Source: Clostridiales bacterium (lineage in GTDB: Bacteria > Bacillota > Clostridia > Saccharofermentanales > DTU023). From it: DNA of 64,000 bases. Shown in pieces: positions 28,913 through 47,520 of the stretch. Every line of letters begins with the position of its first letter. Within the stretch, counting starts at the first letter, position 1. The notes below the pieces were generated by a model. That model had not been told where the DNA came from. It ran no database searches and was given only the letters and a program-made list of their open reading frames with translations. A program made the translations under genes and the position numbers. Location: NCBI GenBank assembly GCA_028724525.1, contig JAQYCV010000019.1, positions 36,806-100,805 on the forward strand, in the 5' to 3' direction.

Positions 28913-31561
28913 CTACTTACTGTAGGGCTTATTTTTTTCTTTAAGATCTTTGAGAATTTGCTTTTGTTCTTGCTGGAGTAGCTTAGTCCGGGCTGCATGA
29001 GCTTCGATCGTTTCTTGATTTTGCTTCTTGAGCTGGGCAAAGGCTTCGCGCTCTTCGCCTTGCTTAGTCTTAATCGCCTGTCTATTATCGTTTAGAAGAG
29101 TCTTACGAGCTTTCTTGCCTTCCTCCAGCTGGGACCTGAAATCTTTCTTCATCAGCTTCAATTGCCTGCGGAAAGCCTTACGCTCGGCTTTATCTTCTTC
29201 CTTGTTGCGTTTATAAGCTAACTTGAGCGCCTGGTCCAACTTCTGCGATTGGGCTTGCAGGTCGGGGGGCAAATCGTCCCAAACAGGTAAGCGATTATTG
29301 AACTCTTTAAGGTCCAGATACAAACCCTTGCTAAGGGCGTTGGCCTCGGCCTGGAAGTTTTCCATATGCTTCTGGCTCTCTTGAGAGGCACTTTGCCGCA
29401 AGTCCAGGAGCTTGCGGTTATATTGGTCATGCAGAGCTTGTAGGTCTGCTTGGTATTTTTGCTGGAGGTCCAGACGCTGTTTCTCTTCCTCCAAACGGAG
29501 CAAGTCTTCTTGCTGGCCCTGCTTCATATGGAGCATAATTTTTTCCTGGTCACATGTCCGTTCCAAAGTCTTCAAGCGCCGATCATAGGTAGAAAGGCAA
29601 GATAGCTTTTCCTGCATGAGTTCCATGGGTCCTAAGCCATCTAGCTTGCGTGGCGGAGCTTCGGCACAGGCAGAATGTTGCTTCTCCTCTTCCGTTTCTT
29701 CTAAGGGTGGGTGCCCCTCTGCTAGTTTATTTTCTAAGTCATCGAGGTTCACCCCAATTAGATCACGCCAACCCAATTGCTCACGCTTGATTAAATCTTG
29801 CAAGCGCTGAGTTTCGACATTCCTTTTTACCTTAAGGGTGGTCGTTTTAATCATATCCTGGAAGCTATAAACATAAGACCGAATTCCCTTAAAGCTGGGG
29901 ACCAAACGGTTGATTTCTTGGATATAACTCTCCAGGGTTGCCTGGATTTCTGCTGGTCCCTTGCCCTCTTTGGCCATACTCTCCTTGTCCAGGACCAACT
30001 TGGCCGTAAGAACAATATCACCGTTACCATCTTCCTGGCCAAAGACCAGAGAATCCTTAACATATTCTTGGTTGTTGAGTAGGCTCTCCAACTCCTCCGG
30101 GAAGACCTTTTTTCCGGAGGGTAGAACGATCATGGATTTGGTACGGCCAGTGAGATAGAGGACTTGTTTTTTGGGATCAATATAACCAATATCGCCCGTA
30201 TGAAACCAGCCATCTTCAGCTAAAACTTCCTTGCTAGCTTCGGGGTCTTGGAAGTAACCCAGCATGACCATATCCCCTTTCACGAGGATTTCACCTGGCT
30301 CATCCGCTTGATCCGAATCGATCGCCAGAGTGACCCCTGACAAGGGCTGGCCACAAGACCCTCGAACATTATATTGCGTATTACAACCCGCTACGACCGG
30401 AGCCGTTTCTGTCAGACCATAGCCCTGGAGGATTTCAATACCGATATCATAAAAGAAATCGATTACTTCTTTGCTAAGAGCGGCTGCCCCAGAAATAGCA
30501 ATATAAAAATCACCGCCGAGTTCTTCCAAAATAGAAGAGAAAATTTGCCGTCTCCGGTCAAGGCCAAAGAAGCGGAGGATTCGCGAGAGAAATAGGCCGA
30601 ACTTAAATTTACACATTTGGCCAGACCGTTCAATATTGCTGAGGATCCGCTTGTGGATAGCCTCAAAGACCTTGGGAACACCAATGACCATGTGGACATG
30701 GTATTCCTGGATATTCTTACCGATATAGCGCAGGCCATCACAAACATGGATGCAACCCCCCAGGCTAAGAACCGAAAGAAAGCCACAAGTATTCTCAAAG
30801 GTATGGTGGAGGGGCAGGAGGGAGAGAGAGCGCAGAGGGTCTTCAAACTTAACTGTTTCTAAAAGAGCCCGGATATCCGCTGTAATATTGGCATGAGACA
30901 GCATAACTGCCTTAGAGACAGCAGTAGTCCCAGAGGTAAAGAGCAGGACCAGCAGCTCATCATCTGCCAGCGGATAATCGGGGCTGGGGCCGGCTTGAGC
31001 CAGTTTGCTTGTCCCCTCTTTCAGTAAATCCTGGAGCTCTTGGATCTGGCTTTTTTGATCTTGCAAGAGATCTGTGAGTTCCTGCAAAAGGTCCTGGTCT
31101 TTATCAGTGTTTATATTATGGACAATCCATTGTTCCACCAGAGGGCAATCTGCTACAAAGGGCAGGAGGGACTTCAGTGCAGGTGGATCTAGGACTACAG
31201 CCTTGACCTCGGCTCTTTGAATGAGTTGAGCCAGCTCTACACCAGTTAGCATAGCATCAAGAGGGCAGGCCACCCCTAGGTCCCAGCAAATCGTAAGATA
31301 GGACAGCATCCATGTGAAAGAGTTAGCGCCTACGAGAGCAATCTTCTCCCCTCCCAAGCCCAGGCCTAGGAAAGCTTCTTTGAGGGCCTGACACTGGTCA
31401 TAGAGCTGGCGGTAGTTTACAGTTACCGGATCCGCCTTCACCGTGGGCCGATAGACAATGGCCGGCCGGTCTCCATAGATGGTTTTTCCCCGCTCTAGAA
31501 TATCGCCAAGGCGGTGGACAGGCGGGGCATCAAAATATTTTTTACCAGTAAGTATTTTCAT
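28913..31561 (-). CDS. Long-chain fatty acid-CoA ligase (AMP-binding) with long C-terminal coiled-coil extension
   Basis: FTSGTT..SK, LPLHH, QGYGLTET, GWFHTGD.G, GRTK, GKKVFPEE, KTTTLKVKR; further ~290 aa charged helical tail. Confidence 0.88.
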   Translation of the reverse strand: MKILTGKKYFDAPPVHRLGDILERGKTIYGDRPAIVYRPTVKADPVTVNYRQLYDQCQALKEAFLGLGLGGEKIALVGANSFTWMLSYLTICWDLGVACPLDAMLTGVELAQLIQRAEVKAVVLDPPALKSLLPFVADCPLVEQWIVHNINTDKDQDLLQELTDLLQDQKSQIQELQDLLKEGTSKLAQAGPSPDYPLADDELLVLLFTSGTTAVSKAVMLSHANITADIRALLETVKFEDPLRSLSLLPLHHTFENTCGFLSVLSLGGCIHVCDGLRYIGKNIQEYHVHMVIGVPKVFEAIHKRILSNIERSGQMCKFKFGLFLSRILRFFGLDRRRQIFSSILEELGGDFYIAISGAAALSKEVIDFFYDIGIEILQGYGLTETAPVVAGCNTQYNVRGSCGQPLSGVTLAIDSDQADEPGEILVKGDMVMLGYFQDPEASKEVLAEDGWFHTGDIGYIDPKKQVLYLTGRTKSMIVLPSGKKVFPEELESLLNNQEYVKDSLVFGQEDGNGDIVLTAKLVLDKESMAKEGKGPAEIQATLESYIQEINRLVPSFKGIRSYVYSFQDMIKTTTLKVKRNVETQRLQDLIKREQLGWRDLIGVNLDDLENKLAEGHPPLEETEEEKQHSACAEAPPRKLDGLGPMELMQEKLSCLSTYDRRLKTLERTCDQEKIMLHMKQGQQEDLLRLEEEKQRLDLQQKYQADLQALHDQYNRKLLDLRQSASQESQKHMENFQAEANALSKGLYLDLKEFNNRLPVWDDLPPDLQAQSQKLDQALKLAYKRNKEEDKAERKAFRRQLKLMKKDFRSQLEEGKKARKTLLNDNRQAIKTKQGEEREAFAQLKKQNQETIEAHAARTKLLQQEQKQILKDLKEKNKPYSK

Positions 31562-33521: not shown

Positions 33522-33652
33522 TTCTCTTGCCTAGTACATATATGTGGCAGACATGAAAATTTGCAAAGGCAGAATTTTCAGGCATGCTAGGCTGTGCATA
33601 TTCTTCAAATTTTGCTGGGACTGACACTCCGGCACAGAAAGAGGGGTTTATT

Positions 33653-34060
33653 GTGGATGCGACGGATATTGAGACTATTGACCTCATCAAGGATATCAGA
33701 CAAGAAACAGCATGCTGGGTAAAGCTGACTCAGGCAGAACCTAGCATCTATGATGACGTGCAATTACTTTTAGGGCATGAGATGCGCAAGCGGCGCAAAC
33801 AAGCAGGCCTCACCCAAATTCAACTCTCCAGTCAAATATTTTACTCGGCCAGCACCATATCCAACATCGAGCATGGTTATATATTCCCCAACATGTTAGC
33901 TTTTAATAACATGTGTCTGTATTTTAAACTGATGGCCGGAAGTCTCATTTACTTGAGCGAGCTCTATTGCCTCTACAAACACCAATACCAAGTTAAGAAC
34001 AATGGAGAGCAGGGAGATTTCCCTGGAGGCAAGGCGAAAAGCCCCATCAATCTCAACTAA
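33653..34060 (+). CDS. XRE-family helix-turn-helix protein
   Basis: LGHEMRKRRKQAGLTQ.QLS......STISNIEHG...P; GTG start after AGAGGGG. Confidence 0.8.
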   Translation: MDATDIETIDLIKDIRQETACWVKLTQAEPSIYDDVQLLLGHEMRKRRKQAGLTQIQLSSQIFYSASTISNIEHGYIFPNMLAFNNMCLYFKLMAGSLIYLSELYCLYKHQYQVKNNGEQGDFPGGKAKSPINLN

Positions 34061-34079
34061 ACCGCTGGCCAGGATCAAA

Positions 34080-34512
34080 GCTAAAGTAGAAAAATTGGTG
34101 TAAAGTTCAGGATGCAAGAACTCGAGGAGCTCGATGGGAGATTTACCACCGAGCTTTTCTCTGGGTGTTGAATTCATTTATCCTAGATGGAGGACAGATT
34201 TAAACAGGTTTTAGTGGTATGGCTGAATTTGAAGCATTCTAGCTATTCTATCGACCGCTTTTTTATCCATTACTTCGGATTTCTTGGATTTCAGACATAT
34301 TTGCAAGTAATGGATGAGTCCCTGCAGCCAAAGCGTCCATTAGCTGCAGATTTGCCCTCATTACCATCCACATCTTGCAAATTTGCCTAGGGGGCCCACC
34401 CATTAGTTGCAATAATGCCGGAGAATCTGGAAATCCAAAGCAACATAGCCCTTTGGCCACCCATCCCGTACCTTCACTCCCTTTGATGTGGAACTTACTT
34501 TTTCACTTTAGC
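34080..34512 (-). mobile_element. Miniature internally deleted IS30-like element (MITE), 433 bp
   Basis: Ends GCTAAAGT(A)GAAAAA / TTTTTCACTTTAGC; flanking direct repeat CCAGGATCAAA at 34069-34079 and 34513-34523; minus-strand peptide MNSTPREKLGGKSPIEL resembles IS30 transposase C-terminus. Confidence 0.75.
34269..34462 (+). repeat. Dispersed ~190 bp repeat, copy C (inside the MITE)
   Basis: Direct match to copy A, inverted match to copy B; motifs at 34336, 34367, 34399. Confidence 0.93.
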
Positions 34513-39469: not shown

Positions 39470-40363
39470 CTAATCTGCCCCCTTGTACCAGTCAGCTTCC
39501 AACAGATAGAAGAAAATAGCCAAGGCTAAGAGGTCAGCCGACCCTCCAGGGGAAAGATTTTTGCCTATCATGGCCTGGTCAAAAGCGTCTAGATCTGGGT
39601 AAAGAGCACTTAGAGGCAAAGGGAAAGACGTTTGAAGATGAAAGCGATCCAAGATAGACTGGGCCTCTGCCTGGACCCAGGCTAAAGCCTGGTCCCCTCC
39701 CCTTCTTAGGATATTGCTGTCAACGTTTTGCGCCATTATGGCAACCAAGGCAAGAAGCATGGCCTCTTGCAAATCACTGTTCGTCCCCCAGGCACGCAAG
39801 ATGACCAGGCCCGGGTCTAGGGCCAGCCTATAGCCTTGAGCGGCCGCCAGGCGGGCACCTCCCGCTTTTCCCCGGCCGGAAGTCTTCTGCCAGTCCCTAT
39901 AAACGGGGCCGGCCAGCTGGCTCACGAGCTGGCAGATAGCCTCTGGCTTGGGCTGTAACTCCTTCTGCCCATAAAGATAGGCGGCTACAGGCAAAATTAA
40001 GGCCCAGGCGAAATTGAGGCCAGCATGGCAGTTAACGCCTTTATTGGCCGCAAGCGAGGCCACTTCCCCGGCCAGGCCAAGTTTTTGTAGGCAGGAAAAA
40101 ATTTGCCTGCCAGCAGAGGACGAAAGCCTGTGGCCCTGGCTTCCTAGCCCCTCTGCGATCAGAGGACCTGCCTGGGCATAGGCCAGAAGATGTGGCTCCA
40201 TAGCCCTGATAGACCGCATAAAAGAGGCCTGATCCATATCCTGGTGGGAACCAGTATTAAAGGGGTCAACTAGGCCTGGCTTGGGACCACAAGTCACCTC
40301 TAAGGTCATAGCCTGGAGGGCCAATTCCACCAGATATTCGGGAAAGGAAGTCGCCTGAGCCAT
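39470..40363 (-). CDS. citG: Triphosphoribosyl-dephospho-CoA synthase
   Basis: EV...PKPGLVD..N.GSH.DMD, GVN, D.NI..RGG, NLSPGGSADLL. Confidence 0.9.
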   Translation of the reverse strand: MAQATSFPEYLVELALQAMTLEVTCGPKPGLVDPFNTGSHQDMDQASFMRSIRAMEPHLLAYAQAGPLIAEGLGSQGHRLSSSAGRQIFSCLQKLGLAGEVASLAANKGVNCHAGLNFAWALILPVAAYLYGQKELQPKPEAICQLVSQLAGPVYRDWQKTSGRGKAGGARLAAAQGYRLALDPGLVILRAWGTNSDLQEAMLLALVAIMAQNVDSNILRRGGDQALAWVQAEAQSILDRFHLQTSFPLPLSALYPDLDAFDQAMIGKNLSPGGSADLLALAIFFYLLEADWYKGAD

Positions 40364-40378: not shown

Positions 40379-41296
40379 CTAAATGCTATTCATATCGACC
40401 AGCTCCATATTGAGATCAAAGCCCACGATACCAACGAGCATGTACTGGCCGGTCAGGGTATCCTGGAGCAGTTGCGGATGGAGGCGGAATTTACTGATTT
40501 TCGAGGTGTTGTCTACATGCATGCGAGGAGCAGTACAGTAATGGGTAATATCCCCTATCTGGACGTGATTGTCATCCAGAAAGGAGACATCCAGGTGGGC
40601 ATCAATCAAGGCATTGATTTCTTGCTCCAACTGTGGGATATCTAGGTCGGGTTTTTCGTTAAAAGCAAGGATGAAACCATGGCGGACATCCCCGTGGGTA
40701 TAGCGATGGATATTGTGTTTTGCCAAGCAATATTCGCAGAGATCTTCTGTCGTATGGGCCATCTTGCGGTAAATAATAGATTCATAAACGATTTGAGAAA
40801 TATCTTCCGGCTCAGGACCAAAATAGGAAGGCCGGGTGACAATAATCTCCTCCCCAACCCCGATTAGGAGGTCGGCATTGCGGCCCAAGCTGTCATAAAT
40901 TAAGTCAAAATGTTCTACAATGACCCGCTTGCCATTCTGCATGGCATTGCGAATAGCATCTGCCAGCTCATGCAACTGGTAAAAACCCAACTCAAAGCGG
41001 ACATCCAAATGATAGGTATGGGGTTTAAAAAAGCCCTCATCCTCTAAGTCCATGATGGGCAGGGGCCGGACATTGACACCCTCATCATCGTTGGTGAGTT
41101 CCAGGCCAGGAAACATCCCTTTAATCAGGGCAGATTTGCCAGAACCAGCTTCGCCGATCACCCCAATTATTTTGTCAAAGGGAGATAAATACAACTGAGC
41201 GATCTGGGCTCCCATATCGGCCATACGGAGACGGCCGCGCGGTGCCAGGAGGACGCTGTAAAGTTGATTTTTCTGCATACGGGCTGAATAGGACAT
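40379..41296 (-). CDS. Uncharacterised P-loop protein with C-terminal AlaRS/ThrRS second-additional (editing-like) domain
   Basis: GEAGSGKS Walker A, VIVEH; C-terminal RKMAHTTEDLC and HYCTAPRMHV.NT..I..F; AAAGGAG RBS. Confidence 0.75.
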   Translation of the reverse strand: MSYSARMQKNQLYSVLLAPRGRLRMADMGAQIAQLYLSPFDKIIGVIGEAGSGKSALIKGMFPGLELTNDDEGVNVRPLPIMDLEDEGFFKPHTYHLDVRFELGFYQLHELADAIRNAMQNGKRVIVEHFDLIYDSLGRNADLLIGVGEEIIVTRPSYFGPEPEDISQIVYESIIYRKMAHTTEDLCEYCLAKHNIHRYTHGDVRHGFILAFNEKPDLDIPQLEQEINALIDAHLDVSFLDDNHVQIGDITHYCTAPRMHVDNTSKISKFRLHPQLLQDTLTGQYMLVGIVGFDLNMELVDMNSI

Positions 41297-41352
41297 AGGG
41301 GCTCCTTTCCGGCTTTTCGGCGGATGAAAAGCTAGGCCGTGGGTTTAGCCTT

Positions 41353-41380
41353 ATTATACTTGCCCTGGCGGCTAAGACAA
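41353..41380 (-). promoter_or_regulatory. Candidate sigma-A promoter for the P-loop/citG unit
   Basis: Minus strand TTGTCT-N16-TATAAT, overlapping the tail of the mal terminator. Confidence 0.45.
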
Positions 41381-41427
41381 AAGAAAAAGAGGCGCCCCTG
41401 ACACCGGAGTGTTGTGAGGCGCCCCCT
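41378..41427 (-). terminator. Intrinsic terminator after mal
   Basis: Minus strand GGGGCGCCTC...GGGGCGCCTC-TTTTTCTTTT GC-rich hairpin with T-tract. Confidence 0.75.
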
Positions 41428-41454
41428 TAGGCTTATAAACTAGGGGCTAGATCC

Positions 41455-42699
41455 CTATTGCTGGGCTTTCTCATAGGCCAGGATACGGGCCATTTCGTTA
41501 TAGACGATCATGTAGCCTTCATCCACACCCATACCAGGCTTAGCCAGGACTTGCTCAGGCTGGGTAGCCATGGCTGCCTGGACACACACCTGGGCAGACC
41601 GGTCTGTTTCATTGCAGGTACCACCCTGGTAGGCATGCATGTCGTGGGTCTTACAGTAGAGAACGGCCTCGATGGTGTTGTTGATGCCACCCAGGTCTGG
41701 GGTCTTGATCTGGACCATATTGCCTGCTTTAGCATCCGTGAATTCCTTGATATCTTCCAAGGTATTGCACCATTCATCTGCGACGAGCTGGACCTGGCAG
41801 CCTTGTTTTTCTAATTCCTGACGGAGGCCAGCCAGGCAGCGGATTTGCTCTGACTTAGAACCGGCATCCATGGGGCCTTCGATCCGAAGTTGGAAGGGGG
41901 CAGCAGCTTCTTCCAGCGTTTTGAGATAGGCAGCCATCTCAGCAAAATTATCGTTGCCAAAAGCCTCTCCAATCGTGCCATAGACATCAATATGGAAGAT
42001 GGGGCTGTAAGCAGGATCCTGCCGCATTTCCATCACGCGATTACGGAGCCACTTAACATATTCTAGGAGCTTTTCGCCTTTACGACCCAGCTTTTCCTCG
42101 ACATTATTAATAAGGGCATGGGGTAGAACTTGAGCCTGCTTGATGATCATTTTTTCAGCATTCTCATAGCGGTTGTCACCAGACTGTGTGAAGATGGGTA
42201 GCATCTCCTGGGCAGGCTCACAATGATATTCGTCTGCGACGACCTGATACATCATTTTCTTTTGCGCCTTGGCGACGGCATCCAAGAGGGCTTGGGTCAA
42301 ACCATAACGCAAGGCAGTATGCAGGCGTTTGCCATCAATCTCCATATGGTCGAACTCTTCAGCCAGAGCTCTAAAAGAATCCAAGTCGCGGCCGACCAGT
42401 TTTGGAGCGATATGCTTCTCCACCAGGGGAATATATTCTTCAGCCAAGAAGAGGGGATCACGTCCGCCGGCGCCAGAATACTGGACTGCGGCACAGTCGC
42501 CCCAAGCGATTTGACCATCTTCCAGGACAAGCATCAGGGACAGGGATTCACCCGGTTGACGAATGCTTGTAAAGCCTGGCGTCTTGGGCTCACCCACGTA
42601 GTTGAAACCATCATGGCCAGCGCCAGACTTGATGGCCTTCTGGTCATCAAAGTAGAAACCGGTTTTGCCGGCAGAGCAGATAACTTTTTGGATTTTCAT
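41455..42699 (-). CDS. mal: Methylaspartate ammonia-lyase
   Basis: GFYFDDQKAI, GDCAAVQYSGAGGRDPLF, HIDVYG, LRIEGP, VADEWCN, QIKTPDLGG, GGTCNET. Confidence 0.97.
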   Translation of the reverse strand: MKIQKVICSAGKTGFYFDDQKAIKSGAGHDGFNYVGEPKTPGFTSIRQPGESLSLMLVLEDGQIAWGDCAAVQYSGAGGRDPLFLAEEYIPLVEKHIAPKLVGRDLDSFRALAEEFDHMEIDGKRLHTALRYGLTQALLDAVAKAQKKMMYQVVADEYHCEPAQEMLPIFTQSGDNRYENAEKMIIKQAQVLPHALINNVEEKLGRKGEKLLEYVKWLRNRVMEMRQDPAYSPIFHIDVYGTIGEAFGNDNFAEMAAYLKTLEEAAAPFQLRIEGPMDAGSKSEQIRCLAGLRQELEKQGCQVQLVADEWCNTLEDIKEFTDAKAGNMVQIKTPDLGGINNTIEAVLYCKTHDMHAYQGGTCNETDRSAQVCVQAAMATQPEQVLAKPGMGVDEGYMIVYNEMARILAYEKAQQ

Positions 42700-42739: not shown

Positions 42740-44188
42740 TTAGGGACGACCTACTAGACGGCCCTTGGAAATAGCATAGACATCATCGATCACCATCTGG
42801 AAAGAAGCTTCGCGACCTTCAGCCTTAGCCCGTTCTTCCAGCTTGGCTCGGTGGAAGTCTTTGAGTTCCTGCGGGAAGGGCAGGTTGCCCATAGCAAAGA
42901 CCCGAACCGCCCCATCATTGTCACGGGCCGGTAGCATCTTGCCTGCATTATAACGGCAGGGGGCGAAAGGAATATCAATAACACCGGCTTCTACGCCTCG
43001 AATCGCTCCTTGGGCGATATCCCCCTCACCTAGTTCGATACACTTATCTAGGACACAGCGGGTCTCTCGCATGATGATATCCTTTTCCTGGGCCAGAGCA
43101 TGCTCTTCGAGGGATTGGTCGTTGAGCATGGAGATCACTTGTTTAGTGCAGCGGAGGCCAGCGGCGTTTGCTTCTTTGGTAGGCACCCCAATGGCCTCAT
43201 GAGGAGTTTTAACAATGACCTTGGTAGCACCCGACAGACCCGCAACTACAGAACCCCAAGAAATAACGGCAAAGGCCTTGGCCTCATCTTGGGGGAAACC
43301 GCCCATCCACTGGTGGAGAACGGTAGTGACTTTGACCTCATCATGGCCAAAACGATGGAGATATTCATCCGTCAAAGTCTCCAGAGTTTTAAGGGCTGCT
43401 ACGTCCTGAATCAGGTTTCCGCATTGGCCATAGCCCACAGTAATATCGCGGACACCCTGCTCTGCAGCCAGCAGAGCTTCAATCACGGCAACAGAGTGGG
43501 AAACAAATGGAGGAACCAAGGTTCCGGTCAAGGGGCCATAGGGTTCGCGGTTAATGGATATACCATTTTCTTCATAAAGGCCCGTGAGGCGGTCAACATA
43601 CTGCCAGTCACGAATGGTCCTTTCCATAGGAACGTTTTTCGCATAGGGCAGGTTGTAGGAGATTCCCCCACCTTCGTAGGAGGTAAAGCCACCCGCATAG
43701 GCGATTTCTGTTAAGAGCCGGGCATCCGGAGTCCCATGGCGAACCTGGAGAGGAACACCTACGGATTCGCAAACCTGGCGGCAACCAGCCACCCCATGGT
43801 TGACTGCGGGGAAGCCGTTGAGCATGGATTTGCCGGTTTTGATGGATTCTTCAATGCCTACCTCGGCCTCTTTATAGCGGTTTTGCCTAGTATAGGAGTC
43901 AATAGTGGTGGGCAGGAGGTCTGCCTCCCCTTCCTTTTCTAGGTATTGCAAAAGCTCAATATGCTTATCGATCAGGGCGACACCAGCCCGGGGCTGGATC
44001 AAGGTCCGACCTTCAGCCTTGGCCTTGGCTAACTTTTTAGAAAAGACTTTTTCTGCAGGAATCGCCTGGTGGTATCTATAAGATTCTTCCAAGTCGACAT
44101 CCTTGCCGGTGGGCCATTGGGCGAGGACCTCCTCCCGGAGGGCTCGGAATTCTTTATCAGGTATTTTAACATTACGGATTTCGCTCAT
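42740..44188 (-). CDS. glmE: Glutamate (methylaspartate) mutase large subunit E
   Basis: [54 protein letters not shown]. Confidence 0.97.
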
Positions 44189-45567
44189 TGCTCAACTAAC
44201 TCCTTTTTCATAATTCTGAGGGCTAGACTTGGGTCATCTTGGCAAAGCACCCCCATGGCAGAGAGGATATATTTTTGATCTAAAAGGACTTTAAAGTCCT
44301 TAGGACGCAGAGAAGTAGGATTTGCAGGATCCCAAGCAGCATAGGATGCGAGCTTCTTCAACTCGTGGCTATGGATCACGGCCCCCCCTGTTAGGACCAG
44401 GATATCGACAGATCTGAGGTCTTTGCCTGTTTGAGCAAAAGCCCGTCCCATAGGGGTATAGACTTCTTCAATGGATCCACAGTGCCGACCCACAGCCACA
44501 TCAATAGCAGTGCCTACGAGGGCATCATCCAATTGGCGCAATTCCTCTGTAGCAGGCACCCGGTCTGTATGCTGGGCCAAGTCATCGCAGAGGGCTTGGA
44601 CTTTGTCAGGAGCCAGCTGGGCTCTTTCTGCCACCAGGTTTAGGCCCTTGGCTTCTAAGATACCGTGCAGGCTGTAGCGCATACCAATATCGCCTTCCAC
44701 CGTGCGTTTAGCATAAGGCTCAGGCAAGCCCTTCATGACCGTCGTCATATCTTCAGGCAGGCCATAGGCCATGGAGTAGACATCCGTAGTAGCTCCACCT
44801 GGATCCACAGCAATGAGGTCACCAAGACCCGCTTCCTCCTCGGTACCCTGGGCTAAGACCTTCATGGCCGCTAGCATGGCCGCAGGAGTAGGCAGGAGGA
44901 TGTTATGGATCATGCCTTCTATGCGGGATAAGCCCTTGGCCTCAACAATTTTTGCCAAGAAAACCTGGCGGATGGCCTCTTGGGCCTCTGCAATATTCAG
45001 TTCCCCCAAGCGGGGCATAACATTAGCGACAATGTGGAAGTCAAGCCCTGCCTCTGTAAAAATCTTCCGAATCTTGCGATTGGCAGACCGGTTGCCTGCC
45101 ACAATAATGGGCTGGTTGAAGCGGATATCTGCCAAAGCTTGGGCATTTTCTAATATGCAGGCTTGGTTTCCCCCATCCGTTCCCCCAGTCAAGAGGAAAA
45201 TATCGGGTTTAAGTTCGGAGATAAGGTCAAGGTCTTCATCCGTGAGTTCATGATCAAAGACCTTTATCACCTTAGCGCCTGCACCCAAAGCGGCCATTTT
45301 TGCAGCTTCCGCTGTAAGCTCCGGCATGAGGCCGGAAACTAACATACGAAGGCCACCTGCGGCCGAAGAACAGGCCTTATGGGTAATAATCTCTATAGGG
45401 CCAATCTGACTTTCCAGCTTGCCAAGGGCTTGCTGGAAGCCTTCAAAAATATCCGTTTGGATGGTGGTAAAAGCTGCAGCGGTACCAAGTATTTCCGCAT
45501 GCTCAGGATCTACAGCACATAACTTGGTAAAGGTGGAGCCAAAGTCGCTCAGGAGCAGGGCTTTCAT
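44185..45567 (-). CDS. glmL: Glutamate mutase accessory/reactivating protein GlmL (MutL)
   Basis: [44 protein letters not shown]; lies between S and E subunits. Confidence 0.95.
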
Positions 45568-45641: not shown

Positions 45642-46091
45642 CTAGGCTTTGGCCCCATGATCTTGGGAGCCGTCTTCAAGACCTAAATCGTGTTTCAGCC
45701 ATTTGATAGTTTCTTCCGGTGTCGTTCCCGGTGGGAAGACCCGGTTGAAGCCCATGGCATGGAAACGCTTTTCGACATTCTCAAAATTCTGTTTACCGAC
45801 GACTATGTTGCCGCCAACAAAGAGCAGAATATTATCCAAACCTGCTTCATCACATTTGGCCCTCAGACCCCGGCAGTCTAACTCACCATGGCCATAAAGA
45901 GAGGAAACGACAATCGCATCAGCAGCGGTTTCTACGGCCGCCGCTATGAATTCTTCCTGGGACACCATAACGCCTAGGTTAGTGACTTCAAAGCCCGCCT
46001 CATTAAAGGCAAAGTCTAGAATACGGATGCCCACGGCGTGAACATCAGCTCCGATGACCCCAATCACTAGTTTCTTACCGTTCTTTTCCAT
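45642..46091 (-). CDS. glmS: Glutamate mutase small B12-binding subunit S
   Basis: DVHAVG (DxHxxG), SSLYGHG, VGGN; start 46091 or 46097. Confidence 0.96.
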
Positions 46092-46117
46092 ATGCATTTC
46101 CTTTCAGGCAAAAGCGC

Positions 46118-46681
46118 TTATGCGTAGCCATGTTCAGCCCGCCAGGCAGCTGGGCCACTTTCGTATAGATTGTGACCTTGGCTATCGATCACGACAAGTA
46201 GAGGCATGCTTTCAACCTGAAGCTTGCGGACAGCTTCCGCACCCAGGTCTTCATAGGCGATGACTTCAGCGCTTTTAACACAACCAGCCAGGAGCGCCCC
46301 AGCGCCACCAACTGCTGCCAAATAAACCGCACCATGATCCTGCATGGCCTGAATGACTTCGGGGCTACGCTTACCCTTCCCGATCATGGCCCTTTGTCCT
46401 AAGGCCAAGAGGCGGGGAGAAAAAGCATCCATGCGGTAAGAGCTCGTAGGTCCACAGGCTCCAATCACTTGGCCCGGTGCCGCAGGAGAAGGTCCTACAA
46501 AAAAGATGACAGAACCTTCCACAGGGAAAGGCAGGTCTTCTCCCCTGTCTAAGGCTTCCACAAAACGCTTGTGGGCCGCGTCCCGGCCGGTATAAATCGT
46601 ACCAGACAGATAAACCCGATCACCCACACGTAGTTTTTTACTATCTTCAAGGCTCATGGGAGCAGTTAAGTGATATTCCAT
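46118..46681 (-). CDS. Class I Fe-S fumarate hydratase beta subunit (probable mesaconase)
   Basis: LSGTIYTGRDAAHKR, GPTSSYRM, IGKG, LGAEA; ATG overlaps alpha-subunit stop. Confidence 0.92.
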   Translation of the reverse strand: MEYHLTAPMSLEDSKKLRVGDRVYLSGTIYTGRDAAHKRFVEALDRGEDLPFPVEGSVIFFVGPSPAAPGQVIGACGPTSSYRMDAFSPRLLALGQRAMIGKGKRSPEVIQAMQDHGAVYLAAVGGAGALLAGCVKSAEVIAYEDLGAEAVRKLQVESMPLLVVIDSQGHNLYESGPAAWRAEHGYA

Positions 46682-47520
46682 TAGAGCACCTCCGTCATAT
46701 GGCGGGTGGCATGACAATTGATATTGACGGCCACAGGCAAGCCTGCAATATGGGTGGGCAGGGCCTCGACATGCACAGCTAAGGCCGTAGACCGGCCGCC
46801 GTAGCCTTGAGCGCCTACGCCAGTTTGAGCAATCAGGTCGTAAAGCTCATTCTCCAAGTCTGCATAGTAAGGATCAGGATTGTGGGTTCCCGTCTCCCTT
46901 AAGAGAGACAGCTTTGCAGCCAGGGCGACCTTATCAAAGTTACCGCCAATGCCCACACCTACGACAATTGGAGGGCAAGGATTGGGGCCTGCGATTTTAA
47001 CCGTTTCCACGACAAAGTCCTTAACACCCTCTACGCCATCACCAGGCCGTAGCATTTTTAGTCGGCCCATATTCTCTGAACCAAACCCCTTGGGCGCAAC
47101 CGTGATTTTGATCTGGTCCCCAGGTACCCGGAAGAGATAGAGGGCCGCAGGCGTGTTATCTCCCGTGTTCACCCGCCGCAGAGGATCAGACACGATGGAT
47201 TTGCGCAGATAGCCCTCAGTATAGCCTTGGCGTACGCCCTCATTGACCGCGGCTTGCAAGTCGCCCTGGAGGAAGACTTCTTCGCCCAGCCAAATAAAGA
47301 CAAGAGCCATACCCGTATCTTGACAGATCGGCATTTGACTCTCTTCCGCAAGCTGGTAATTGTGGATAATATCTTCCAAGGCTGAAAGGGCAGCCGGGGA
47401 ATCCTCTTCTTCTTTCAAGGCCTGGAGCCGGACGCGTACGTCCTCAGGCAAAACGCGGTTGCAGGCAATGCACATGCGTTTAATAGGGCCAATCAGGTCT
47501 TTGGCCTGATACGTTCTCAT
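46681..47520 (-). CDS. Class I Fe-S fumarate hydratase alpha subunit (probable mesaconase)
   Basis: PICQDTG, NTGDNTPA, KGFGSEN, NPCPP, GIGG, NINCH..R. Confidence 0.93.
   Translation of the reverse strand: MRTYQAKDLIGPIKRMCIACNRVLPEDVRVRLQALKEEEDSPAALSALEDIIHNYQLAEESQMPICQDTGMALVFIWLGEEVFLQGDLQAAVNEGVRQGYTEGYLRKSIVSDPLRRVNTGDNTPAALYLFRVPGDQIKITVAPKGFGSENMGRLKMLRPGDGVEGVKDFVVETVKIAGPNPCPPIVVGVGIGGNFDKVALAAKLSLLRETGTHNPDPYYADLENELYDLIAQTGVGAQGYGGRSTALAVHVEALPTHIAGLPVAVNINCHATRHMTEVL

Follow-up and report, generated by a model that had tools for sequence, protein, structure and literature searches.

A two-domain protein with TsaE- and AlaX-like folds follows the glutamate mutase large subunit and may act on its Tyr471/Lys475 helix

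The window analyzed here, a stretch of DNA of 64,000 nucleotides, encodes a 305 aa protein (hereafter referred to as X) whose family of two-domain proteins is unstudied, although common among anaerobes that ferment glutamate. X follows GlmE, the large subunit of the textbook B12 radical enzyme glutamate mutase, across genomes; it does not follow the lyase, Mal, GlmL or the formation of methylaspartate. Two GlmE residues, Tyr471 and Lys475, are conserved specifically where X is present. Judging from these sequence patterns, X probably acts on the GlmE helix carrying both residues, be it as an ATP-driven switch or as a kinase.

Genomic context of X

X is encoded by a genuine open reading frame in a cluster with gene order fumAB-glmS-glmL-glmE-mal-X-citG, the neighbors being named by Pfam and NCBIfam. 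The features of this region are as follows:

39470..40363, minus strand: citG, stand-alone (Pfam)
40379..41296, minus strand: X, 305 aa protein with an ATG start; TsaE/UbK-like P-loop domain plus AlaX/ThrRS-editing-like domain
40412..40789, minus strand: C-terminal AlaX/ThrRS-editing-fold domain of X (residues about 170-295), with R177, H181-x-x-E184-D185, H201-x-D203 and C254-x-G-P-R258-x-H260
40802..41296, minus strand: N-terminal TsaE/YdiB-type P-loop domain of X (residues about 1-165), with Walker A GEAGSGKS, HxDxR and EH replacing EW; SPT/S absent
41353..41405, minus strand: terminator-like hairpin (41405-41391), then promoter-like site (41380-41353), in the gap from mal to X (matches to consensus)
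41455..42699, minus strand: mal, methylaspartate ammonia-lyase (Pfam, NCBIfam)
42740..44188, minus strand: glmE, glutamate mutase large subunit (Pfam, NCBIfam); putative partner of X
42764..42778, minus strand: codons for GlmE Tyr471-Lys475 (DDVYAISKG helix); putative docking or acceptor site
44185..45567, minus strand: glmL, mutase accessory protein (NF040745, over cut-off)
45642..46097, minus strand: glmS, B12-binding small subunit (TIGR01501)
46118..47520, minus strand: two-subunit class I fumarase/mesaconase (Pfam, NCBIfam)

An earlier note on this DNA had placed X between mal and citG, and there it lies, 15 nt from the end of citG (40363) and 158 nt from the end of mal (41455). The intergenic stretch between mal and X (41297-41454) is structured (fold z -2.5). 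X and citG may thus have a transcript of their own, apart from that of mal; the promoter-like site is a consensus match only, with a promoter count not above chance. A methylaspartate-pathway cluster is described in PMC4682846, the accessible part of which makes no mention of X. The carrier lyase is split over three loci in the source genome (G000), with citG in the window, citDEF at C16:16408-18992 and citX plus a citC-like gene at C33:65396-67241. Elsewhere in the window, an 882 aa open reading frame (28913-31561, minus strand), which we take from its motifs to be acyl-CoA-ligase-like, bears a highly charged C-terminal extension of ~270 residues, and a segment of lower GC (33584-34177) holds a small HTH-like open reading frame and a 93 aa one that presumably resembles an IS30-type transposase end.

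The homologue search returned 3,682 homologues of X from 4,898 candidates, with 272 matches among 50%-identity representatives. Their best automatic name at NCBI, 'alanine-tRNA synthetase second additional domain-containing protein', labels the family by domain and not by function, and no Pfam or NCBIfam model scores over its cut-off for X. PDB sequence searches with X retrieved P-loop fragments only, and the absence of X from longer fusions among the sequences found is weak evidence. No published characterization of X was found in the largely open-access literature covered on the mutase, Mal, AtuA and AlaX/trans-editing.

Domain architecture and motifs of X

The AlphaFold model of X, built with 106 sequences, has a pLDDT of 90.0 and a pTM of 0.88. 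Its N-domain (model residues 11-161) matches best the YdiB/TsaE/YjeE fold (5np9; Z 10.2, rmsd 3.2, 123 aligned), followed by 6nak_D and 1fl9 (both Z 9.3), with ABC and RecA-type ATPases scoring below the TsaE-type matches (Z 8.2 or less). The C-domain matches best AlaX-M (9iuw; Z 12.5, rmsd 2.6, 121 aligned), with AlaX-S (1v7o, Z 11.2) and the ThrRS editing domain (1tje, Z 11.0) close behind, and Foldseek agrees with both domain assignments. The tRNA-editing-like C-domain proposed in the earlier note was thus borne out by the structural check suggested there. Sequence matches of X to editing domains are weak by themselves (hhalign E 4e-4 and 1e-2; tRNA_SAD matched weakly in 21/44 family members, best E 0.003), so it is the fold search that supports this assignment.

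The motifs recognized previously, GEAGSGKS (X residues 48-55), RKMAHTTED (177-185) and CTAPRMHVDNT (254-264), are conserved across 106 homologues and are not chance occurrences. In the N-domain, K54 is present in 106 and S55 in 105 of these; the C-domain keeps R177 (106), H181 (102), E184 (105) and D185 (99), together with C254 (105), R258 (105) and H260 (101) of the Cys motif, and an additional HxD pair that the earlier note had not listed (H201 and D203, each 103/106). Position 256 is Ala in the window protein and Gly in 100/106 homologues. Aligned with TsaE of the same genome, GEAGSGKS, HLDVR and EH of X correspond to GDLGAGKT, HFDCYR and EW; aligned with the AlaX and ThrRS of that genome, with weak profile matches, HTTED and CTAPRMH correspond to HTGEH and CAGP--H.

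Against the defining motifs of TsaE/UbK, as given in the accessible part of PMC13241743, X has the Walker A motif Gx4GK[T/S], carries H96-x-D98-x-R100 for HxDxYR (His and Asp present, Tyr missing), shows NDDEGVNVRP in place of SPT/S (switch I) and reads E128-H129 for EW, with the Glu kept and His in 104/106. It also falls below the TsaE cut-offs (PF02367, 13.5 vs 26.6 bits; TIGR00150, 16.7 vs 60.1 bits). The editing motifs HxxxH and CxGxH, defined in the accessible part of PMC12003907, are altered as well. The second His of HxxxH is acidic in X, as had been read from the window protein, aligning to D185 (HTTED vs HTGEH of its own AlaX) and being Asp in 99/106 with His outside the top four residues. 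The parallel drawn for the Cys motif holds for the Cys and the last His and fails in the spacing, where a two-residue insertion gives CxGPRxH instead of CxGxH. Because of these altered motifs, X belongs by definition to neither the TsaE/UbK nor the AlaX family, although the ligands for Mg and ATP are kept, as is the Cys of the editing domains; the TsaE-type ATP residues correspond to K54, S55, H96, D98 and E128, each present in at least 104/106 homologues. An LxxDD motif after the P-loop (LTNDD), reminiscent of HPrK/PEPCK, had suggested such a fold; no chain of this type figured among the best 50 fold matches, and TsaE was the best P-loop match.

X follows glmE across genomes

Full X is present in 33 of 61 relatives (four further weak P-loop matches were dropped) and accompanied by glmE in 32, the discordant genome being 85% complete. 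Among 301 genomes of the phylum, X was matched in 63 and glmE in 73. Intact X accounts for 56 of the 63 matches and coincides with glmE in 56/56; the remaining seven are three broken remnants without glmE, two broken copies with glmE and two P-loop-only forms. In a sample of 398 scored genomes of the class, four of which overlap the earlier sets (three others were left unscored), X was found in 23, again with glmE in 23/23. Phylogenetic profiling, the check proposed in the earlier note, therefore supports the link to the methylaspartate pathway, in the form of a dependence of X on the mutase gene. The suggestion made there of a factor for the B12 mutase likewise draws support from this co-occurrence, and mutase binding itself is what we infer below. 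A correlation between X and GlmE distances (rho 0.6) is expected from shared ancestry and was left unused.

The converse association is looser: X is missing from 13/73 and 6/29 glmE genomes in the 301- and 398-genome samples, respectively, an absence rechecked by full scoring in 10 genomes. X was also not found in one E. coli chromosome and three proteobacterial replicons carrying the pathway, the 314 aa open reading frame upstream of E. coli glmS being no homologue of X. Two of five MAGs checked (G741 and G744, completeness not given) have X with no glmE found, and in one of them the contig ends 1.2 kb away from X.

In Bacillota, X is followed directly by rph in 47/64 loci, which is a pointer to tRNA metabolism, and it stays beside rph where glmE lies 5-11 kb off or at another locus. 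Outside Bacillota, X travels with the glm operon and without rph, which was adjacent in 0/61 mostly non-Bacillota loci. One genome (G180) has a tandem duplicate of X before rph and away from the glm operon (L072:8177-10107), with Lys for Arg258 in one copy.

X persists beside a pseudo-GlmE

Among the 56 genomes with intact X, 10 have no glmS over cut-off, 11 no glmL and 8 no mal, and a direct GlmS query in five of the glmS-less genomes yielded only 24-40% matches. In families f28 (including the single-contig genome G076) and f48, GlmE is 24-29% identical to the window GlmE. Residues R101, E172, Y182, H292 and K327 (numbered as in the window GlmE and located by way of the C. cochlearium sequence), which we take to be the catalytic residues, are lost in 9/9 of these rows, and Y471 and K475 are kept in 9/9. 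The f28 and f48 proteins are hence predicted to be catalytically dead pseudo-enzymes (pseudo-GlmE), encoded beside an intact X that keeps its motif residues, with minor changes in f48. Substitution rates in the G076-G122 pair (X, dN 0.083 and dS 1.14; pseudo-GlmE, dN 0.35 and dS 1.34) indicate purifying selection on both proteins; most other pairs are saturated at dS. The f28 layout is gntR, pseudo-glmE, X, rph, with pseudo-glmE and X occurring in the same 8/10 genomes. In all, intact X is found in 8 genomes that have neither glmS nor mal, 7 of them in f28/f48 with a dead GlmE (including G314). The retention of X in such genomes is accounted for neither by the formation of methylaspartate nor by a carrier of the lyase.

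Several related observations were made at these loci. The pseudo-GlmE open reading frames, orphan and intact, are those of L062-L067, L111, L112 and L114; in the genomes checked, neither glmS nor mal was found. Family f45 holds an orphan GlmE (L082, L083, L086, L088) with the Arg claw and Glu172 intact and without glmS, mal or X, located between glutamate racemase and gerM-rph and with Tyr471 replaced by Ser or His. The P-loop-only forms of X (L070:10493-10987 and L071:8331-8822), which are about 165 aa long and have a changed Walker A, lie beside a degenerate GlmE that keeps Y471. A conserved GntR regulator of ~330 aa is encoded in 33/61 glm loci (for instance L013:2556-3545 and L064:5820-6809), with an unnamed, two-lobed effector domain bearing invariant Cys, Glu and His. 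The idea that this domain is a B12-binding substitute for GlmS gained no support; it matched EIIB, receiver and LacI-type folds (Z 8-10). A 400 aa open reading frame after tsaE (L104:221-1423, minus strand) presumably encodes a TsaB-RimI fusion, from its motifs.

Two GlmE residues depend on X

The 65 GlmE positions kept in both canonical X-positive and pseudo-GlmE proteins were screened for dependence on X. In the discovery set, Y471 is present in 0.99 of 92 X-positive, 9/9 pseudo and 4/15 X-negative sequences, and K475 in 0.98, 9/9 and 7/15, respectively. In 35 held-out GlmEs, for which the prediction had been set beforehand, Tyr471 is found in 29/29 X-positive and 1/6 X-negative sequences, the replacements being four Phe and one Leu. 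Tyr471 thus totals 129/130 X-positive against 5/21 X-negative genomes, the single exception (L008) having an aberrant, apparently frameshifted C-terminus; excluded from these counts are both P-loop-only genomes (each with Tyr), G272 for a contig break, G359 for its aberrant frame, G204 because its X is broken, and any frame below 400 aa. Three further X-positive genomes read DDIYAISKG in 3/3, with X unlinked from glmE in one. Tyr471 is replaced by Phe in five X-negative genomes, and the crystallized C. cochlearium GlmE subunit also has Phe at this position.

On a GlmE tree built without the C-terminal columns, Tyr471 was lost in four separate X-negative lineages and in no X-positive lineage; the independent-pairs test, with 4 pairs, is not significant (p 0.25). 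Y471 changed 8 times on X-negative branches and never elsewhere, and K475 changed 9 times on X-negative branches and once elsewhere, with X-negative branches carrying 17% of all changes (Y471, Bonferroni 3e-4; next column, p 1e-3); the binomial p overstates independence, because the 8 changes at Y471 fall in 4 lineages. The same test detected no X-dependent column in Mal, GlmL or GlmS (none below Bonferroni 0.6). In matched loci also holding mal, K475 (0.014) and Y471 (0.07) are the top two GlmE columns after Bonferroni correction.

A C-terminal enrichment of residues kept in pseudo-GlmE was considered as a further signal of X and set aside: it is mostly structural, since X-negative GlmE keeps those residues too, and only Y471 and K475 discriminate. 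These two positions are four residues apart and would therefore lie as on one helix face. An action of X on GlmL, as of TsaE on TsaBD, was likewise rejected, 11/56 X genomes lacking glmL and GlmL having no X-dependent site.

A possible ATP switch at the GlmE interface, and its alternatives

The reading we prefer, which we hold tentatively and would place slightly short of an even chance, is that X docks on the C-terminal Tyr471/Lys475 helix of GlmE and, using ATP at the interface, acts as a switch by which the mutase is reset or turned off. In the TsaBDE complex, as described in the accessible part of PMC6614819, Lys166 and Lys213 of TsaD contact the ATP of TsaE, TsaD Tyr218 hydrogen-bonds TsaE Arg134, ATP hydrolysis resets the partner enzyme and TsaE ATPase activity needs Trp109. 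TsaE works at an interface completed by a Lys and a Tyr of its partner, and we propose the same for X, whose ATP site would be completed by the Lys and Tyr of GlmE, the ATP used there serving as the switch. The AlaX-like pocket, where a modified metal site is flanked by two invariant Arg, would most simply sense an acidic ligand; glutamate or methylaspartate would be our guess. Alternatively, this domain could be a hydrolase gated by the ATP cycle. In mutase-less lineages, the dead GlmE would be kept as an X-activating surface, so that the complex would have an output beyond catalysis, possibly toward the neighboring GntR.

The two genomes that have the P-loop half of X alone and still keep Y471 fit a docking switch. 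Several observations weigh against it. Five of the 21 X-negative GlmEs still have Tyr471; X is dispensable, as the glmE genomes and the pathway-bearing E. coli without it show; two MAGs have X with no glmE found; and rph directly follows X in most of the Bacillota loci. X also has neither the SPT/S switch nor the EW Trp of TsaE, and the statistical signal weakens in the independent-pairs test and, for Y471, in the loci with mal.

It is possible, though in our estimation unlikely, that X is instead a UbK-type kinase phosphorylating GlmE Tyr471, with the AlaX-like metal domain as ligand sensor or opposing phosphatase, in the manner of a bifunctional converter enzyme. Glutamate mutase would then be under reversible tyrosine phosphorylation, a TsaE-derived kinase writing pTyr471 and the editing domain reading glutamate or erasing the mark; equally doubtful, as part of the same reading, is that in some lineages the decayed mutase is kept only within a GntR/pseudo-GlmE/X signaling module. 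YdiB, the closest fold to the N-domain, is a Ser/Thr/Tyr kinase, and its fold autophosphorylates and also phosphorylates other proteins, according to the accessible part of PMC13241743. X keeps the Walker A motif, the catalytic HxD and the metal-binding Glu, and its C-domain has extra acidic and His ligands besides the two invariant Arg. The X-dependent Tyr turns to Phe in X-negative genomes and in the C. cochlearium enzyme, so that for a kinase the hydroxyl would be the feature lost. A hydrogen-bonding Tyr accounts equally well for this replacement, however, X has no SPT/S motif and deviates from HxDxYR and EW, and phosphorylation of a dead GlmE needs a further output to account for its retention. 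Nothing relevant on glutamate mutase tyrosine phosphorylation or on Phe471/Tyr471 was found in the largely open-access literature covered. A phosphorylated citrate lyase ligase in C. sphenoides would be a precedent, but we place no weight on it.

We regard as improbable the proposal of the earlier note that X acts in trans as an editing deacylase on 3-methylaspartyl-tRNA, and likewise the variants in which the substrate is another non-cognate acidic aminoacyl-tRNA or docking to GlmE switches the activity on. The AlaX/ThrRS editing fold stands, with the catalytically important Cys and the first His kept, and the accessible part of PMC12003907 has Zn dispensable for AlaRS-type editing. The invariant Arg could bind a carboxylate, and the other domain of X resembles a tRNA-modification ATPase. 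tRNA editing thus keeps some plausibility, owing to the retained Cys and to the rph gene that follows X in Bacillota. The proposal is weakened by the intact, purifying-selected X of genomes with neither glmS nor mal, most of them with a dead GlmE, and by the E. coli and alphaproteobacterial pathway loci without X. Both editing motifs deviate from the standard form, separate AlaX, AlaRS and ThrRS proteins are encoded in the genome, rph is not adjacent to X in the mostly non-Bacillota loci, and editing alone predicts no surface signature on GlmE. The literature covered, again largely open-access, yielded no link between methylaspartate and mischarging by AspRS.

Very unlikely, in our view, is a housekeeping role of X in tRNA or nucleotide metabolism that goes with rph, its tie to glmE reflecting linkage in a murI-glm-rph region. 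X does stay beside rph when glmE is distant, but genomes that have rph and no glmE almost never carry it (the 3 exceptions among 301 are broken remnants), outside Bacillota it goes with the glm operon and without rph, and linkage leaves Y471 and K475 unexplained.

The other function suggested in the earlier note, that X matures, activates or deacylates the acyl carrier of citramalate lyase, is rejected, as the distribution contradicts it: X lies 15 nt from citG in the window and Peptoclostridium has the order citC-X-citX, but the 61 related loci from several phyla (glmE in 51, mal in 54) have an AtuA/DUF4387 pair, the carrier-free citramalate lyase CmlAB (9ERQ, E 4e-183), in 47, a CoA ligase with CitE in 2 and citX/citG in only 8, several complete citDEF-citC operons lack X (L157-L161), and the source genome has its own citC and citX. 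Cml is mentioned in the accessible part of bioRxiv 10.64898/2026.01.16.699985. The loci with succinyl-CoA-synthetase-like ligase subunits and a CitE-type lyase (L048:6870-9879, L045:7786-9937) point to a third citramalate-cleavage route in glm operons.

Implications and comparison with known systems

If X docks on GlmE, most sampled glutamate-fermenting anaerobes have a post-translational switch on this pathway, and it would act where fermentation burns the cell's main nitrogen carrier. The C. cochlearium GlmE, with its Phe471, may in that case come from a minority lineage that lost control by X. We found no report of an ATP-driven control layer on glutamate mutase in the largely open-access literature covered. 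The analysis narrows a large orphan family (3,682 matches) to a residue-level question at GlmE Y471 and K475, and brings to light pseudo-mutases on which purifying selection acts.

Among known families, the closest to the N-domain are the TsaE/YjeE/YdiB proteins (PF02367), which comprise the t6A-complex ATPase and the UbK kinase family. X shares with them the Walker A motif, HxD and the Walker B Glu; it differs in being fused to an editing-type domain, its genome has a separate true tsaE, and its putative partner is a TIM-barrel B12 mutase, whereas that of TsaE is TsaBD. With the AlaX, AlaRS and ThrRS editing domains (PF07973), X has in common the first His, the Cys and the last His, and it is set apart by HxxxD, an invariant Arg in the Cys-motif insertion, the extra HxD, the fusion to an ATPase domain and an occurrence that depends on glmE. 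The top feature match for residues 1-165 was YmfK/DUF3388 (PF11868; score 0.92), an ACT domain plus P-loop family in which Walker A and IIEH motifs are likewise present and whose genomic context differs; the profile comparison is not significant (E 0.14), and this kinship is a lead only. The YmfK/DUF3388 proteins at L109:1471-2259 and L110:1297-2058, with Walker A and IIEH, suggest another P-loop family with a sensor domain.

In its proposed role, X compares best with the NTP-driven helpers of B12 mutases. GlmL (NF040745) is such a helper, encoded beside a B12 mutase as X is, and has a different fold; it accompanies X, yet X is also retained where GlmL, GlmS or a working mutase is missing. MeaB-type G-protein chaperones are accessory NTPases of B12 mutases, with a fold unlike that of X. 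X would thus combine a TsaE and an AlaX module into an accessory protein or regulator that serves a B12 mutase and is driven by NTP and, if this holds, would be a case of translation-fidelity modules reused for metabolic control.
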